Shown one piece after another: positions 26,892 to 36,145 of a stretch of DNA of 64,000 nucleotides (position 1 is its first letter; each line of letters starts with the position of its first letter). The stretch lies in NCBI RefSeq assembly GCF_003790525.1, contig NZ_CP033635.1; one strand, written 5' to 3'. The translations under genes were made by a program, and so were the position numbers. Below the pieces are notes generated by a model. The model worked only from the letters and a program-made list of their open reading frames with translations, was not told the origin of the DNA and ran no database searches. The DNA is from Escherichia coli (lineage in GTDB: Bacteria > Pseudomonadota > Gammaproteobacteria > Enterobacterales > Enterobacteriaceae).

Positions 26892-28166
26892 ATGTCCAGA
26901 AATAATAAACAGTGGTTGGGTTTGCCACTGCATCTGATATGGGGATATATCGCCATCGCAGTATTTATGACTGGTGATGGTTTCGAACTCGCATTCTTAT
27001 CGCACTATATTAAATCGTTAGGCTTCACACCTGCGGAAGCCTCTTTTGCCTTTACGCTCTACGGCCTGGCGGCTGCCCTTTCCGCCTGGGTTTCTGGGGT
27101 AGTAGCGGAAATCATCACGCCGCAAAAAACCATGCTGATTGGTTTTGTCCTATGGTGCGTATTCCATGTTCTGTTTCTGGTCTTTGGATTAGGACAGGCA
27201 AACTATGGGTTAATCCTGCTGTTTTACGGGATTCGTGGTTTAGCGTATCCGCTATTTCTCTACTCATTTATCGTCGTTATTATTCATAACGTGCGTAGCG
27301 AAAATTCCAGTTCTGCTCTGGGTTGGTACTGGGCGGTATATTCAGTAGGGATCGGTGTTGCTGGCAGTTATATTCCCAGTTTTACGATACCGATTATGGG
27401 TGAAATGGGAACCTTATGGCTGGCACTGGCGTTCTGCTTTGCTGGCGGTGTCATTGCCATGATCTCCTTGCGTCATGTTAAAACGCCTGGACATATGCAT
27501 AATTTAACTCCCCGTGAGAAGTTTGCAGAATTAAGTCGGGCAGTAACTTTACTTTATACCAACCGCAATATTTTTCTCTCCAGTATTGTGCGCATTATAA
27601 ATACCTTATCGTTATTCGGTTTTGCGGTCATTATGCCAATGATGTTTGTGGATGAACTGGGATTCACCACCTCTGAATGGTTGCAGGTCTGGGCGGCATT
27701 TTTCTTTACCACTATTTTCTCTAATATTTTTTGGGGGATTGTGGCAGAAAAAATGGGCTGGATGCGTGTTATTCGCTGGTTTGGTTGCCTCGGGATGGCA
27801 GCATCAAGTTTAGCGTTTTACTACATGCCGCAATACTTTGGTCACAACTACTGGATGGCAATGATTCCGGCGATTGCTCTGGGAACTTTTGTTGCTGCAT
27901 TTGTGCCGATGGCCGCTGTCTTCCCGGCACTGGAACCAAAACACAAAGGTGCTGCAATCTCGGTTTACAACCTCTCTGCGGGTATGTCTAACTTCCTGGC
28001 TCCGGCAATTGCCGTGGTGTTATTACCGTGGTTTAGCACTATCGGTGTGGTCATTGCCTATACAGCATTGTATCTATTGGCCTTTGTCCTTTGCGCATTC
28101 ATTCGCGTTGAGCAGCCAGGATTCAGTTCTGCGCCAGTGACTGAGAAGGCATTGAATATCTCCTGA
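26892..28166 (+). CDS. rtlT: MFS pentitol transporter, ribitol operon (424 aa)
   Basis: Paralog of atlT (MSRNNKQWLGLPLHLIWGYIAIAVF...). Confidence 0.85.
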   Translation: MSRNNKQWLGLPLHLIWGYIAIAVFMTGDGFELAFLSHYIKSLGFTPAEASFAFTLYGLAAALSAWVSGVVAEIITPQKTMLIGFVLWCVFHVLFLVFGLGQANYGLILLFYGIRGLAYPLFLYSFIVVIIHNVRSENSSSALGWYWAVYSVGIGVAGSYIPSFTIPIMGEMGTLWLALAFCFAGGVIAMISLRHVKTPGHMHNLTPREKFAELSRAVTLLYTNRNIFLSSIVRIINTLSLFGFAVIMPMMFVDELGFTTSEWLQVWAAFFFTTIFSNIFWGIVAEKMGWMRVIRWFGCLGMAASSLAFYYMPQYFGHNYWMAMIPAIALGTFVAAFVPMAAVFPALEPKHKGAAISVYNLSAGMSNFLAPAIAVVLLPWFSTIGVVIAYTALYLLAFVLCAFIRVEQPGFSSAPVTEKALNIS

Positions 28167-29275: not shown

Positions 29276-29531
29276 TACTATGCTCCCGTAAATTCCGATT
29301 GGATATCGGCTATGGATTGTCCTGGCCCGCCTTTTGCGGGCAATCATAATCCTGGTCGTTACGGGCGAGTTTTTCCATCTTTTGGATGTTTTTTCAGCGT
29401 TTTCTGTTGGCTCGATTCATCAGAAAAAATGTTAGCGCGGTCAAGTTTTCACCGCAAAGGTATTTAAAAGGTATTATTAAGTGGTATTGTCATCGCGTAC
29501 CTTACATTACCTGTCATGAAGGAATTAAAAG

Positions 29532-30809
29532 ATGAAAACAACAGCAAAGCTGTCGTTCATGATGTTTGTTGAATGGTTTATCTGGGGCGCGTGGTTTGTG
29601 CCATTGTGGTTGTGGTTAAGTAAAAGCGGTTTTAGTGCCGGAGAAATTGGCTGGTCGTATGCCTGTACCGCCATTGCGGCGATCCTGTCGCCAATTCTGG
29701 TTGGCTCCATCACTGACCGCTTTTTCTCGGCGCAAAAAGTGCTGGCGGTATTGATGTTCGCAGGCGCGCTGCTGATGTATTTCGCTGCGCAACAGACCAC
29801 TTTTGCCGGGTTCTTTCCGTTACTGCTGGCTTACTCTCTAACCTATATGCCGACCATTGCGCTGACTAACAGCATCGCTTTTGCCAACGTGCCGGATGTG
29901 GAGCGTGATTTCCCGCGCATTCGTGTGATGGGCACTATCGGCTGGATTGCCTCCGGTCTGGCATGTGGTTTCTTGCCGCAAATACTGGGGTATGCCGATA
30001 TCTCACCGACTAACATCCCGCTGCTGATTACCGCCGGAAGTTCTGCTCTGCTCGGTGTGTTTGCGTTTTTCCTGCCCGACACGCCACCAAAAAGCACCGG
30101 CAAAATGGATATTAAAGTCATGCTCGGCCTGGATGCGCTGATCCTGCTGCGCGATAAAAACTTCCTCGTCTTTTTCTTCTGTTCATTCCTGTTTGCGATG
30201 CCACTGGCGTTCTATTACATCTTTGCCAACGGTTATCTGACCGAAGTCGGCATGAAAAATGCCACCGGCTGGATGACGCTCGGCCAGTTCTCTGAAATAT
30301 TCTTTATGCTGGCATTACCGTTTTTCACTAAACGCTTTGGTATCAAAAAGGTATTATTGCTTGGTCTGGTCACCGCTGCGATCCGCTATGGCTTCTTTAT
30401 TTACGGTAGTGCGGATGAATATTTCACCTACGCGTTACTGTTCCTCGGTATTTTGCTTCACGGCGTAAGTTACGATTTTTACTACGTTACCGCTTACATC
30501 TATGTCGATAAAAAAGCCCCCGTGCATATGCGTACCGCCGCGCAGGGGCTGATCACGCTCTGCTGCCAGGGCTTCGGCAGTTTGCTCGGCTATCGTCTTG
30601 GCGGTGTGATGATGGAAAAGATGTTCGCTTATCAGGAACCGGTAAACGGACTGACTTTCAACTGGTCCGGGATGTGGACTTTTGGCGCGGTGATGATTGC
30701 CATTATCGCCGTGCTGTTCATGATTTTTTTCCGCGAATCCGACAACGAAATTACGGCTATCAAGGTCGATGATCGCGATATTGCGTTGACACAAGGGGAA
30801 GTTAAATGA
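29532..30809 (+). CDS. yegT: Nucleoside:H+ symporter-family MFS transporter YegT (425 aa)
   Basis: 12-TM ORF resembling NupG/XapB-type nucleoside permeases; position after fbaB. Confidence 0.85.
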   Translation: MKTTAKLSFMMFVEWFIWGAWFVPLWLWLSKSGFSAGEIGWSYACTAIAAILSPILVGSITDRFFSAQKVLAVLMFAGALLMYFAAQQTTFAGFFPLLLAYSLTYMPTIALTNSIAFANVPDVERDFPRIRVMGTIGWIASGLACGFLPQILGYADISPTNIPLLITAGSSALLGVFAFFLPDTPPKSTGKMDIKVMLGLDALILLRDKNFLVFFFCSFLFAMPLAFYYIFANGYLTEVGMKNATGWMTLGQFSEIFFMLALPFFTKRFGIKKVLLLGLVTAAIRYGFFIYGSADEYFTYALLFLGILLHGVSYDFYYVTAYIYVDKKAPVHMRTAAQGLITLCCQGFGSLLGYRLGGVMMEKMFAYQEPVNGLTFNWSGMWTFGAVMIAIIAVLFMIFFRESDNEITAIKVDDRDIALTQGEVK

Positions 30810-31810
30810 AAACAGAACGTATTCTCGGTGCTCTTTATGGGCAGGCGTTAGGGGATGCGATGGGGATGCCCTCCGAGCTTTGGCCACGCAGCCGCGTTAA
30901 AGCACACTTTGGCTGGATTGACCGTTTTCTTCCTGGACCAAAGGAGAATAACGCGGCCTGTTATTTTAACCGCGCCGAATTCACCGACGATACCTCGATG
31001 GCGCTGTGTCTGGCGGATGCGTTACTGGAACGTGAAGGCAAGATCGATCCGAATCTGATTGGGCGTAATATTCTCGACTGGGCGCTGCGTTTCGACGCCT
31101 TTAACAAAAACGTACTTGGTCCGACCTCGAAGATTGCGCTTAACGCCATTCGCGACGGTAAACCCATTGCTGAACTGGAAAACAACGGCGTGACCAACGG
31201 CGCAGCGATGCGCGTCTCGCCATTAGGTTGTTTGCTTCCGGCGCACGATGTTGATTCCTTTATTGATGATGTGGCGCTGGCGTCCAGCCCGACCCATAAA
31301 TCCGATCTGGCGATTGCAGGCGCGGTAGTCATCGCATGGGCGATTTCTCGTGCCATTGACGGAGAAAGCTGGTCAGCGATTGTAGATTCACTGCCTTCAA
31401 TTGCGCGACATGCACAGCAAAAACGCATCACTACCTTCAGCGCCTCACTGGCAGCACGTCTGGAGATTGCGCTGAAAATTGTGCGCAATGCCGACGGCAC
31501 CGAATCCGCCAGCGAACAGCTTTACCAGGTCGTTGGCGCAGGTACCAGCACTATTGAGTCCGTTCCGTGCGCCATTGCGCTGGTTGAACTGGCACAAACC
31601 GACCCGAATCGCTGCGCCGTCCTGTGCGCTAACCTTGGCGGCGACACAGACACCATCGGCGCTATGGCGACGGCGATTTGCGGCGCGTTGCATGGCGTTA
31701 ACGCTATCGATCCTGCATTAAAGGCGGAACTGGATGCGGTAAATCAGCTTGATTTCAACCGCTATGCCACAGCGCTGGCGAAATATCGTCAACAACGGGA
31801 GGCGGTATGA
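30806..31810 (+). CDS. yegU: ADP-ribosylglycohydrolase-family protein YegU (334 aa)
   Basis: 334-aa ORF; start overlaps the yegT stop (ATGA). Confidence 0.8.
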   Translation: MKTERILGALYGQALGDAMGMPSELWPRSRVKAHFGWIDRFLPGPKENNAACYFNRAEFTDDTSMALCLADALLEREGKIDPNLIGRNILDWALRFDAFNKNVLGPTSKIALNAIRDGKPIAELENNGVTNGAAMRVSPLGCLLPAHDVDSFIDDVALASSPTHKSDLAIAGAVVIAWAISRAIDGESWSAIVDSLPSIARHAQQKRITTFSASLAARLEIALKIVRNADGTESASEQLYQVVGAGTSTIESVPCAIALVELAQTDPNRCAVLCANLGGDTDTIGAMATAICGALHGVNAIDPALKAELDAVNQLDFNRYATALAKYRQQREAV

Positions 31811-32772
31811 GCGGCGCTCGATTACACACGCTGCTGCCTGAATTAACCTCGCGTCAGCCGGTGATGGTCGTCGGCGCGGCGGTCATTGATGTGATCGCCG
31901 ACGCTTATGCCCTCCCCTGGCGTGGGTGCGATATCGAACTGAAGCAGCAGAGCGTTAACGTTGGCGGCTGCGCACTGAATATTGCCGTGGCGTTAAAGCG
32001 CCTCGGCATCGAAGCGGGTAATGCCTTGCCGCTCGGTCAGGGCGTGTGGGCGGAGATTATTCGCAACCGGATGGCGAAAGAGGGGTTAATCAGCCTGATC
32101 GATAACGCCGAAGGCGATAACGGCTGGTGTCTGGCGCTGGTTGAGCCGGATGGCGAACGCACTTTTATGTCATTCAGCGGTGTGGAAAATCAGTGGAATC
32201 GCCAGTGGCTGGCGCGATTAACCGTTGCGCCTGGCAGCCTGCTCTATTTTTCCGGTTATCAACTGGCCTCGCCCTGCGGCGAATTGTTAGTGGAATGGCT
32301 GGAAAAGCTGCAAGACGTGACGCCGTTTATCGATTTTGGCCCACGTATCGGCGATATCCCGGACGCATTACTGGCGCGGATCATGGCCTGTCGACCTTTA
32401 GTATCACTCAATCGTCAAGAGGCTGAGATTGCCGCCGAACGTTTTGCTTTATCCGCAGAGATAACAACACTTGGCAAGCAATGGCAGGAGAAATCTGCCG
32501 CGCCGTTGATCGTTCGTCTCGATAAAGAGGGTGCATGGTATTTCAGCAACGACGCTTCTGGCTGCATTCCGGCATTTCCAACGCAAGTTGTAGACACCAT
32601 TGGGGCGGGCGACAGTCATGCAGGTGGCGTACTTGCCGGGCTGGCCTCTGGTCTGCCACTGGCGGATGCCGTATTACTGGGCAATGCAGTGGCGTCGTGG
32701 GTTGTCGGGCATCGGGGCGGTGATTGTGCGCCAACGCGCGAGGAACTACTCCTCGCACACAAAAACGTATAG
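31807..32772 (+). CDS. yegV: PfkB-family carbohydrate/nucleoside kinase YegV (321 aa)
   Basis: C-terminal PfkB signature DTIGAGDSHAGG; start overlaps the yegU stop. Confidence 0.85.
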   Translation: MSGARLHTLLPELTSRQPVMVVGAAVIDVIADAYALPWRGCDIELKQQSVNVGGCALNIAVALKRLGIEAGNALPLGQGVWAEIIRNRMAKEGLISLIDNAEGDNGWCLALVEPDGERTFMSFSGVENQWNRQWLARLTVAPGSLLYFSGYQLASPCGELLVEWLEKLQDVTPFIDFGPRIGDIPDALLARIMACRPLVSLNRQEAEIAAERFALSAEITTLGKQWQEKSAAPLIVRLDKEGAWYFSNDASGCIPAFPTQVVDTIGAGDSHAGGVLAGLASGLPLADAVLLGNAVASWVVGHRGGDCAPTREELLLAHKNV

Positions 32773-33492
32773 ATCGCTGCGACAGTGGCTAATGCTGTAC
32801 TCAATAGGCCGTTGCTGTTGGTCAAGCGCCACTTGCTTGATCACCAGCACCGGTATTTTGCTATCTAACTGAATATGTGACTGAAACTCGGCATCCGGCA
32901 TCCGGGCGCTAACGCGGGAACGTGTACGTTGTGGGTAAATGTGCTGGCTGCGGAAATAGTCATAAAGTGAAATCCCGATGGCATCAACATCATGAATTAA
33001 ATGCGCCGGAACCCACGATTCCTCAATCGATACCGCTTCTTCATCGACATAGCGAATACGCTTAAGCAAAAAGACATCACTTCCTGCTTCGACCGCCAGC
33101 TGCTGCGCGACTTCTTCGGGACATTTCACGACACGCTTGTTAACCCATAGCGTATCGGGCTTTTTCCCGCGCAATACCACCTGCTGAGAAAAACCTCGCG
33201 CTTCTTTCAACGAGTATTCGAAGATGTTGTTGATCTGCGTGCCGTAACCGCGCGAACGCGTCACCACACCCTCTTCTTCCAGCGCCTGCATCGCCTTGCG
33301 CACCGTAATGCGCGAAACGCCGGTTAACTGACTTAAATCACGCTCACCGGGCAAAATATTGCCATGCTCCAGCACCCCGCTGCGCACGGCATTTTTTACC
33401 GTTTCGGCAAACTTAATATAAAGCGGCGTGTTATCCGCAGCTAAAATACGCTCGTTCAGTTGGGCAATCAGCTGGGTATGCGCTTGTTCCAT
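32746..33492 (-). CDS. yegW: GntR/HutC-family transcriptional regulator YegW (248 aa)
   Basis: N-terminal GntR HTH (LPGERDLSQLTGVSRITVRKAMQAL) plus UTRA-like C-terminus; 3' end overlaps the yegV 3' end by 27 bp. Confidence 0.85.
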   Translation of the reverse strand: MEQAHTQLIAQLNERILAADNTPLYIKFAETVKNAVRSGVLEHGNILPGERDLSQLTGVSRITVRKAMQALEEEGVVTRSRGYGTQINNIFEYSLKEARGFSQQVVLRGKKPDTLWVNKRVVKCPEEVAQQLAVEAGSDVFLLKRIRYVDEEAVSIEESWVPAHLIHDVDAIGISLYDYFRSQHIYPQRTRSRVSARMPDAEFQSHIQLDSKIPVLVIKQVALDQQQRPIEYSISHCRSDLYVFVCEE

Positions 33493-33543
33493 TTGTCTTT
33501 TTCCTGCCAGGGAGTCTGGTGGGAGTATATCACTGCTTCTTAT

Positions 33544-34371
33544 TTAAGGCGTTTCTTTAATCCCATCAACGAATCCCTGCAACTCCTCCACCGTGCCATT
33601 AAACACATTAAAATCCACCGGACCATTGATGCCATCTACCTGTCCACGGTCGGAATGCTGCCAGAAGCGCCAGGCCATTCCGTCATTGTCCGGACGACGT
33701 TGATAATAGTGAGCCACCCACCACGGATATTCATTAAAATAGCCCGCCAGATTCGTGTGATAAAAAACGGCTCCTGAGTAAATAATCGGCTTTTTTCCCG
33801 TGCGTTTTTCTACCATTTTTAGCCACTGACTTACCCGCTTGCGTAATTCTTTTGCCGATAATTTTCCCCGTTCTTCTACGTCCAGCACGGCAGGGAAATC
33901 GCCTTGTGAGAAATCCACCGTTTGCAGAAATAATCGCGCCTGAACTGAAGCGGATACCGACGGGGAGAAATAATGATACGCCCCACGCAGCATGCCATTT
34001 TCGCGGCTTAGTTGCCAGTTACGCGAAAAATAGGGGTCCACCAGCTTTTCGCCTTCCGTCGCCTTAATAAAAGCAAACTGTAAGCGGATACCGTTGTCGC
34101 GCATTTTTGCCACCCGCTGCCAGTCGATCCGCTCCTGCCAGCGCGAAACATCTATTCCGTGAATGGTATAACTGGCAGGAATGCGAATTGCGAAAGATTT
34201 AACCGGGCGATAACCGTAGAAGTGGATGTAGTCTTTAATCTGAACTGCTGTCGAATAGAAAAAATTCACCGTCTGACGCGGATAAATTGCAATGATGGAA
34301 ATTAGCCCAAGAACGCATAATAAAGCGGTGAATTTTTTTCGACTGGTGATTCTCAGCTGCATTGGTTTCAT
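33544..34371 (-). CDS. yegX: Glycoside hydrolase family 25 (lysozyme-like) protein YegX (275 aa)
   Basis: N-terminal TM/signal segment followed by a GH25-like domain (GIDVSRWQ...). Confidence 0.8.
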   Translation of the reverse strand: MKPMQLRITSRKKFTALLCVLGLISIIAIYPRQTVNFFYSTAVQIKDYIHFYGYRPVKSFAIRIPASYTIHGIDVSRWQERIDWQRVAKMRDNGIRLQFAFIKATEGEKLVDPYFSRNWQLSRENGMLRGAYHYFSPSVSASVQARLFLQTVDFSQGDFPAVLDVEERGKLSAKELRKRVSQWLKMVEKRTGKKPIIYSGAVFYHTNLAGYFNEYPWWVAHYYQRRPDNDGMAWRFWQHSDRGQVDGINGPVDFNVFNGTVEELQGFVDGIKETP

Positions 34372-36039: not shown

Positions 36040-36145
36040 GCAATGACCTGGTGGTCCGTGACTTCCCTACGCTGGCATTATCCAGATCAGGTGATACGGG
36101 TATTTCTCAGCCTTCACGCAGAAGGGCACCCCGAGTCGTTTGGTT
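36040..36145 (-). ncRNA. TPP (thi-box) riboswitch in the thiMD leader; ends approximate
   Basis: Minus strand reads GGGGTGCCCTTCTGCGTGAAGGCTGAGAAATACCCGTATCACCTGATCTGGATAATGCCAGCGTAGGGAA, containing the conserved CTGAGA and ACCTGATCTGGATAATGCCAGCG elements of the thiM riboswitch. Confidence 0.85.

Follow-up and report, generated by a model that had tools for sequence, protein, structure and literature searches.

The yegTUV-yegW locus and its overlapping genes

We examined the yegTUV-yegW locus of Escherichia coli within a stretch of 64,000 nucleotides from contig NZ_CP033635.1 (assembly GCF_003790525.1), referred to here as the window. According to the open reading frame listing and the raw sequence, three genes follow one another on the forward strand: yegT (29532-30809), encoding a 425-residue permease of the NHS (nucleoside:H+ symporter) family; yegU (30806-31810), encoding a 334-residue metal-dependent hydrolase of the ADP-ribosylglycohydrolase (ARH) fold; and yegV (31807-32772), encoding a 321-residue PfkB/ribokinase-family kinase. 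On the reverse strand, yegW (32746-33492) encodes a 248-residue repressor of the GntR family (HutC subfamily) that carries a UTRA effector domain and has been renamed GgaR (PMC10819704). RefSeq gives identical boundaries for all four genes under generic names. The Pfam families found at the locus (Nuc_H_symport in YegT, ADP_ribosyl_GH in YegU, PfkB in YegV, GntR and UTRA in YegW) back the permease, glycohydrolase-like, sugar kinase and GntR calls that an earlier note had made from the letters of this DNA. A megablast search with positions 29300-33600 recovered the locus at an identity of at least 95% in 5419 of 5426 complete E. coli genomes, and yegTUV-yegW is part of the E. coli core genome. 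Both the locus and its repressor have already been described in the literature.

The genes are packed without spacers. At the yegT/yegU junction the ATG of yegU (30806-30808) overlaps the TGA of yegT (30807-30809), and at the yegU/yegV junction the ATG of yegV (31807-31809) overlaps the TGA of yegU (31808-31810), so the ATGA-type overlaps proposed earlier are present in the raw sequence. Shine-Dalgarno-like runs lie within the preceding genes (GGGGA at 30795-30799 and GGGAGG at 31797-31802), 4-6 nt ahead of the respective ATG; together with the overlaps they imply that translation of yegT, yegU and yegV may be coupled. Among the overlaps found in bacterial operons the four-base ATGA class is the commonest, and the two in yegTUV are a real yet ordinary feature. 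The convergent coding overlap of yegV and yegW, also noticed before, spans exactly 32746-32772, 27 bp, tail to tail; a convergent overlap of this length kept across genera is less common than 4-nt overlaps. Both 4-nt overlaps and the 27-nt overlap have kept their length in about 18 loci that represent ten enterobacterial genera, among them Escherichia, Citrobacter, Enterobacter, Kluyvera, Pseudocitrobacter, Superficieibacter, Cedecea, Mangrovibacter and Pectobacterium; they are no longer kept in the more distant relatives Budvicia, Tatumella (4 nt), Gilliamella, Hafnia and Vibrio.

Co-transcription of the three forward genes, on which the earlier note had staked its reading, is already on record: Northern blotting with yegT and yegV probes detects one mRNA of about 3.3 kb, visible only when ggaR is deleted (PMC10819704). 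The sequence fits a single yegTUV transcript, with its 4-nt overlaps and no internal terminator that stands out.

The YegU-YegV pair and a proposed riboside pathway

YegU matches PF03747 at 2.2e-66 (224.9 bits against a cut-off of 26.2). When aligned with human ARH3 by HMMER, its residues E24, T60, D61, D62, D280, D282 and T283 fall on ARH3 E41, T76, D77, D78, D314, D316 and T317. These ARH3 residues supply the Glu-flap catalytic Glu and coordinate the two-metal centre, roles that are documented (PMC7050489). Among 25 diverse members of the YegU family, D61 and D282 are invariant, T60, D62, D280 and T283 are present in at least 90%, and E24 in 21. The earlier note would have given up its reading had YegU lacked the conserved glycohydrolase residues; the catalytic Glu and all six metal-site residues are kept in both the ARH3 and the family alignments. 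The AlphaFold2 model of YegU (predicted local distance difference test score 96.8) finds its best structural match in MJ1187 (1t5j), followed by a Thermus ARH-like protein, ARH3 and DraG, with template modelling scores of 0.72-0.90 against 1t5j, ARH3 and DraG.

The adenine clamp with which ARH3 binds adenosine, F143/Y149 (PMC7050489), aligns to N126/V129 of YegU with a three-residue deletion in between, in a weak pairwise alignment of about 22% identity, and the YegU-family alignment has no conserved aromatic residue at the clamp columns. This absence is weak evidence that the substrate does not carry the adenosine part of ADP-ribose. Sequence and fold searches of the PDB with YegU and YegV gave no pointer to the substrate, returning only uncharacterised relatives (MJ1187, Thermus ARH-like protein) or ADP-ribosyl hydrolases, and none of YegU, YegV or YegW reaches an NCBIfam equivalog cut-off.

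Given the complete ARH fold and catalytic site, and weak NCBIfam matches to DraG and Tri1, YegU could be imagined as a macromolecular de-ADP-ribosylase acting on protein or nucleic acid like DraG, Tri1 and ARH3, with the transporter and kinase as unrelated neighbours. We consider this very improbable. The two matches score far under threshold (80 bits against 337 for DraG, 70 against 490 for Tri1), the locus holds no partner ADP-ribosyltransferase, the adenine clamp residues are not conserved, and YegU is encoded in one coupled operon and its relatives are repeatedly fused to a kinase, as described below. The locus gave no PADLOC defence-system matches, and a reading of it as a defence system was rejected on that ground.

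YegV matches PF00294 at 9.7e-56 (189.7 bits). The active-site comparison that had been suggested as a check shows the PfkB kinase motifs to be intact, including the catalytic Asp of GAGD: among 26 family members the ribose-binding D28, G53-G54, N58, N202 and E205 of the NxxE motif, and G266-A-G-D269 are invariant. YegV scores 20 bits against the cut-off of 540 of the pseudouridine-kinase (PsuK) model. That the substrate is not evident from the sequence, as the earlier note had stated, still holds, and YegV was listed as an uncharacterised sugar kinase as late as 2025. Our literature search for the function of YegU, YegV or ARH+PfkB clusters found no assignment; a paper on the ribokinase STM3547/RikA turned out to concern an unrelated gene.

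YegT matches PF03825 over its full length at 3.5e-184 and exceeds the NHS family model TIGR00889 with 654.9 bits against a cut-off of 446.1. Its crystal structure, determined at 3.1 Å, shows that the residues by which NupG contacts uridine are not conserved, and no signal was seen in isothermal titration calorimetry against U, A, C or G (PMC11979927). Uridine, cytidine, xanthosine and gemcitabine are likewise not taken up by YegT (PMC11241209). As these published transport and binding data are negative, the cargo of YegT is probably not a standard nucleoside.

An exhaustive profile search recovered 6840 relatives of YegU, of which 237 reach E <= 1e-30. The top 150 include twelve long proteins of about 600-760 residues, and eight of the ten long relatives tested are fusions of an ARH and a PfkB domain, found in both domain orders; those with the ARH domain N-terminal and the PfkB domain C-terminal carry the YegV-family motifs GERTF and GAGD[AT]H. 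We then scanned the genes within 4 kb of the YegU-like gene at 79 loci, taking one genome per species. These loci come from Enterobacterales, Vibrio, Aeromonas, Chromobacterium, Parasutterella, Bacillales, Lactobacillales, Clostridia/Lachnospiraceae, Dialister, Actinobacteria and Chloroflexi and represent four phyla (Proteobacteria, Firmicutes, Actinobacteria and Chloroflexi). A YegV-like kinase is found at 64 of the 79 loci and a GntR/UTRA regulator at 52, while the carrier belongs to the NHS family at 28 loci, to NCS1 at 20 and to the PnuC-like family (PF04973) at 12. Under a stricter gene set the counts become 62 of 77 loci for the kinase and 57 of 77 for the kinase together with a transporter. 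The fusion loci add ECF and ABC importers, giving five interchangeable transporter types overall. Co-directional gene strings nearly always consist of the ARH gene, the carrier and the kinase alone, and no aglycone-processing enzyme is consistently linked across the 79 loci. In Clostridia, the PnuC-like gene directly follows the kinase gene.

Several loci depart from this arrangement. In Brenneria, Edwardsiella and Serratia (loci L033, L035, L037, L038 and L046) neither a YegV-like kinase nor an NHS carrier adjoins the YegU-like gene; with the exception of Brenneria L033, these loci pair it with a YegW-like regulator. Such kinase-less loci suggest that the hydrolase may act alone, or with an unlinked kinase, in some lineages. 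A single locus, that of Leuconostoc holzapfelii (L065 5160-11258), has an NrtR-type regulator, an MFS transporter and a NadC-like phosphoribosyltransferase directly upstream of YegU-NCS1-YegV, a context that hints at a link to NAD metabolism. Two high-GC contigs (L090 1555-4172 and L091 1-2522) each hold an ARH-PfkB fusion of actinobacterial type whose start overlaps with an isochorismatase-family (Cys amidase) gene; one of the two contigs also encodes an NCS1 carrier. DeoB-like and DeoC genes adjoin one fusion locus.

Because the hydrolase and kinase stay fixed or fused while five importer classes are exchanged around them, the pair most probably belongs to a small-molecule scavenging pathway, and because NHS, NCS1 and PnuC carriers have in common the transport of nucleoside- or vitamin-like ribosides, the cargo is probably a riboside. 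We therefore favour, as somewhat more likely than not, the reading that yegTUV serves the repressor-controlled uptake and breakdown of a non-canonical riboside, with 5'-phosphorylation by YegV followed by C1' cleavage by YegU. YegT would bring the riboside into the cell by proton symport, YegV, with its ribokinase fold, would place a phosphate on the ribosyl 5'-OH, and YegU, with its two-metal ARH fold, would hydrolyse the bond at ribose C1' to give ribose-5-phosphate and the aglycone. The absence of any other consistently linked enzyme suggests that the payoff is ribose-5-phosphate or a common aglycone. The comparative data thus strengthen the earlier suggestion that the operon takes up and processes a nucleoside or ribosylated compound.

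The order of the two steps could also be the reverse, with YegU splitting the riboside into free ribose and aglycone and YegV acting as a dedicated ribokinase paralogue that forms ribose-5-phosphate. The best NCBIfam and PDB matches of YegV are indeed ribokinases, and the fusions and gene linkage fit either order. Against this, YegV reaches only 84 bits where the ribokinase cut-off is 299.65 (and 61 against 341 for a second model), and in the ribokinase motifs GSxNxD and GGKGxN the Asn and Lys next to the sugar are replaced by Val26 and Cys55, a replacement kept across the family. PnuC-family carriers work by facilitated diffusion and rely on a cytoplasmic kinase for trapping (PMC5749112), so that a kinase paired with such a carrier has to act on the transported molecule itself. 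ARH enzymes bind ribose that carries a 5''-phosphate (PMC7050489), and E. coli already possesses RbsK. Cleavage before phosphorylation is therefore unlikely in our judgement. The need of PnuC for a trapping kinase, the PnuC-like gene adjoining the kinase gene and the binding of 5''-phosphorylated ribose by ARH enzymes together favour the kinase-first order.

Several points weigh against phosphorylation followed by cleavage of a scavenged riboside. We found no report of an enzymatic activity for YegU or YegV or of a substrate for YegT. The only reported effector of GgaR is ADP-glucose at 10-100 µM, which is not a simple riboside, and the published phenotypes concern glycogen only (PMC10819704). 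The ARH enzymes that have been characterised work on ADP-ribosyl conjugates, with a preference for alpha-1'' linkages (PMC7050489), while the linkage in ordinary nucleosides is beta. Fifteen of the 79 loci have no nearby kinase, and the aglycone hints, one NrtR/NadC context and two isochorismatase neighbourhoods, are anecdotal. As ARH1 and ARH3 select alpha-1'' linkages (PMC7050489), the substrate may be an alpha-riboside, or the stereospecificity may have changed in the YegU branch. From the carriers and neighbours (PnuC, NCS1, the one NrtR-NadC and the two amidase neighbourhoods) comes a hint of a possible pyridine riboside substrate of the nicotinamide/nicotinate type; alternatively, the stereochemistry of ARH enzymes hints at an alpha-linked riboside.

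GgaR, its candidate operator and the convergent gene end

YegW combines an N-terminal GntR winged helix (PF00392, 59.2 bits) with a C-terminal UTRA domain (PF07702, 125.1 bits); its best NCBIfam model is PhnF, with 129 bits against 156.8. Binding of YegW to the fbaB-yegT spacer, proposed in the earlier note as a check, was already published in 2024: chromatin immunoprecipitation on chip (ChIP-chip) finds a single chromosomal target for GgaR, with a second peak within yegT, and in electrophoretic mobility-shift assays GgaR binds a 190-bp probe just upstream of yegT (probe-2) and, more weakly and at higher protein, nucleotides 571-869 of yegT (probe-5) (PMC10819704). Deletion of ggaR derepresses yegTUV about 30-fold as measured by reverse-transcription quantitative PCR (PMC10819704), and GgaR is a single-target repressor of yegTUV.

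The published study gives no operator motif (PMC10819704). In the fbaB-yegT spacer we find a candidate on the forward strand at 29459-29501, composed of GGTATT boxes at 29459-29464, 29470-29475 and 29483-29488 and an inverted GTACC at 29497-29501. Across 16 aligned orthologous upstream regions the flanks vary, but the first two GGTATT boxes and the ACC within GTACC never change, and every NHS-type locus fetched has the tandem pattern upstream of yegT. With one mismatch allowed, GGTATT-N5-GGTATT occurs only twice in the window, at 29459-29475 and 30339-30355, and none of 100 shuffles reaches two; the exact 12-mer AAAGGTATTATT is likewise confined to these two places. The second copy, GGTATCAAAAAGGTATT (30339-30355, forward strand, one mismatch), lies inside yegT over the codons G-I-K-K-V-L. 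Both of its boxes are kept in 14 of 22 orthologues by way of the rare codons GTA and TTA. Both tandem sites fall inside the DNA probes shifted by GgaR, and the intragenic copy is also under the second ChIP peak. The tandem GGTATT boxes are thus a candidate GgaR operator, as judged from sequence conservation and overlap with the bound regions.

A consensus scan of the spacer predicts only one promoter-like site, a sigma-70 type at 29448-29477 on the forward strand (TTCACC, an 18-nt spacer and TATTAT; 9 of 12 consensus matches), and the second GGTATT box overlaps its -10 element TATTAT. GgaR bound to the tandem boxes over the -10, with the copy in yegT in addition, would hold the operon about 30-fold repressed until an effector frees it. 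Upstream of this promoter, a CRP-like site TGTTA-N6-TCAAG (29430-29445, forward strand) occupies conserved columns in the 16 upstream regions. It appears consistent with the peak 'fbaB<CRP>yegT' reported from systematic evolution of ligands by exponential enrichment (PMC3105977).

What frees GgaR bears on the function of the operon. In vitro, ADP-glucose at 10-100 µM releases it from DNA while glucose and ADP do not, and deletion of ggaR raises glycogen 2-3 fold (PMC10819704). The reading of the earlier note leaves this published link to ADP-glucose and glycogen unaddressed. Saito et al. (2024) proposed that the operon handles or supplies ADP-glucose, with uptake by YegT and conversion by YegU and YegV, and that GgaR senses ADP-glucose and sets glycogen; the release of GgaR, the glycogen increase and a genome-wide screen in which yegV deletion lowered glycogen speak for it. 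No proposed reaction, however, ties an ARH hydrolase and a PfkB kinase to ADP-glucose, and the three effector compounds tested did not include ADP-ribose, AMP or ribotides. Moreover, lactic acid bacteria, Clostridia, Actinobacteria and Chloroflexi have the enzyme pair together with importers of the PnuC, NCS1, ECF and ABC types, and this argues for a small riboside obtained by scavenging. The change in glycogen may have an indirect cause, such as shifted AMP or ribose-5-phosphate pools at 30-fold derepression. We therefore regard a dedicated ADP-glucose function as quite unlikely.

Building on the riboside pathway, we advance a wider proposal that is possible though speculative: the YegU-type ARH fold may have been recruited from ADP-ribose signalling as a metabolic phosphoribohydrolase and, with a YegV-type kinase, may form an undescribed multi-phylum riboside route. 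The inducer of GgaR might then be the phosphorylated intermediate, and the effects of ADP-glucose and on glycogen might reflect mimicry or side effects.

The downstream end of the operon reaches into its own repressor gene. A candidate intrinsic terminator of yegTUV at 32809-32866 (forward strand), about 40-95 nt past the yegV stop and inside yegW, consists of a hairpin (32809-32853) and a T-rich tail. The 151-nt region that contains it folds at z = -4.16, and the hairpin is kept in 11 enterobacterial genera with compensatory change at two pairs. Coding constraint confounds this pattern, so conservation of the element as a terminator is something we infer only. A simple terminator scan found sites no more numerous than in shuffles. 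Termination at 32809-32866 would give an mRNA of about 3.38 kb from the predicted promoter, matching the Northern, and about 120 nt of it would lie over the yegW message. Induced yegTUV transcription would then run antisense into yegW and could lower its expression and sharpen induction. The yegV-yegW pair appears in the ExcludonFinder list of convergent overlaps drawn from RNA-seq coverage (PMC12288877). Because the overlap pairs a repressor with its own target, an antisense effect, if any, would amount to feedback.

The perfect palindrome CGAGGAACTACTCCTCG at 32738-32756 spans the yegV/yegW coding overlap. It was rejected as a terminator on both strands, and is probably not one because neither strand has a downstream U-run. 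In two Vibrio loci (L030 and L031) an extra MFS transporter gene lies between yegV and a co-directional yegW. The orientation of yegW in Vibrio suggests that the convergent arrangement is specific to Enterobacterales. On its other side, yegW begins 51 nt (33493-33543) from the end of yegX, a GH25 lysozyme-like gene on the same reverse strand (33544-34371); given this short gap and shared strand, yegW might be partly read through from yegX.

In the wider neighbourhood, the order is a ribitol/arabitol-type cluster, fbaB, yegTUVW, yegX and thiDM. The cluster lies just upstream of fbaB (window positions 26892-28166 and upstream; L097 1-5867) and comprises a LacI regulator, an SDR, an FGGY pentulose kinase and an RbtT/DalT MFS transporter; the annotation around the locus shows that the window comes from a non-K-12 E. 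coli. The only Rfam element nearby is the thiamine pyrophosphate riboswitch upstream of thiM (RF00059, 71.2 bits, 36047-36143, reverse strand), and a structured-RNA element within the yegTUV-yegW locus was rejected.

Significance and comparison with known systems

For this E. coli core operon the regulator, the transcript and the transporter structure are known and the chemistry is not. The comparative evidence yields a testable pathway from riboside to 5'-phosphoriboside to ribose-5-phosphate and aglycone, and leaves the status of the locus, already described, unchanged. New in this analysis are the active-site check of YegU and YegV, the multi-phylum linkage with the fusions, and the tandem GGTATT box. 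The enzyme pair is widespread in gut Firmicutes, soil Actinobacteria and Chloroflexi, and once its substrate is named, a large branch of the ARH family that is so far uncharacterised would gain a function, and it would become clearer whether the glycogen link is direct.

The closest parallel in logic is the PsuT-PsuK-PsuG system (yeiM-yeiC-yeiN), in which an importer, a PfkB-family kinase forming the 5'-monophosphate and a glycosidase lead to ribose-5-phosphate and a base; fusions of the PsuK/PsuG type are known as well. The parts differ: PsuG is IndA-like while YegU, without homology to PsuG, is an ARH protein, and the transporter is of the CNT type rather than NHS. The chemistry proposed for YegU, from ribotide to ribose-5-phosphate and base, is that of the nucleotide 5'-monophosphate phosphoribohydrolases LOG, PpnN, Amn and Rcl, whose folds are unrelated to that of YegU.

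With the ARH family (ARH1, ARH3, DraG and Tri1; PF03747) YegU has in common the all-helical fold, the T-D-D and D-x-D-T ligands of the two-metal centre, and a Glu flap bearing the catalytic Glu. Known members strip ADP-ribose from proteins, poly(ADP-ribose) or O-acetyl-ADP-ribose; YegU differs by its transporter-kinase operon, by the lack of the ARH3 adenine clamp in the alignment and by its closeness to the uncharacterised MJ1187. YegT in turn resembles the nucleoside:H+ symporters NupG and XapB in its fold, in passing the family model and in its GxxxD protonation motif, but differs in having about 27% identity, no NupG uridine contacts, and no binding or transport of the common nucleosides tested.

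The pairing of convergent genes recalls the excludons, which are alike in their overlapping convergent 3' ends, and the yegV-yegW pair is listed among them from RNA-seq. Here, however, a repressor overlaps its own target, and mutual exclusion or RNase III processing is not known for yegV-yegW. Finally, YegW shares the winged helix and UTRA domain of the HutC-type GntR repressors (NagR/DasR, PhnF, FrlR and MngR), which like it are local repressors of an adjacent catabolic operon. It is set apart from them by reaching no equivalog model, by its reported effector ADP-glucose, and by a candidate operator that is not a simple palindrome but a tandem direct repeat with 11-bp spacing and an inverted box.

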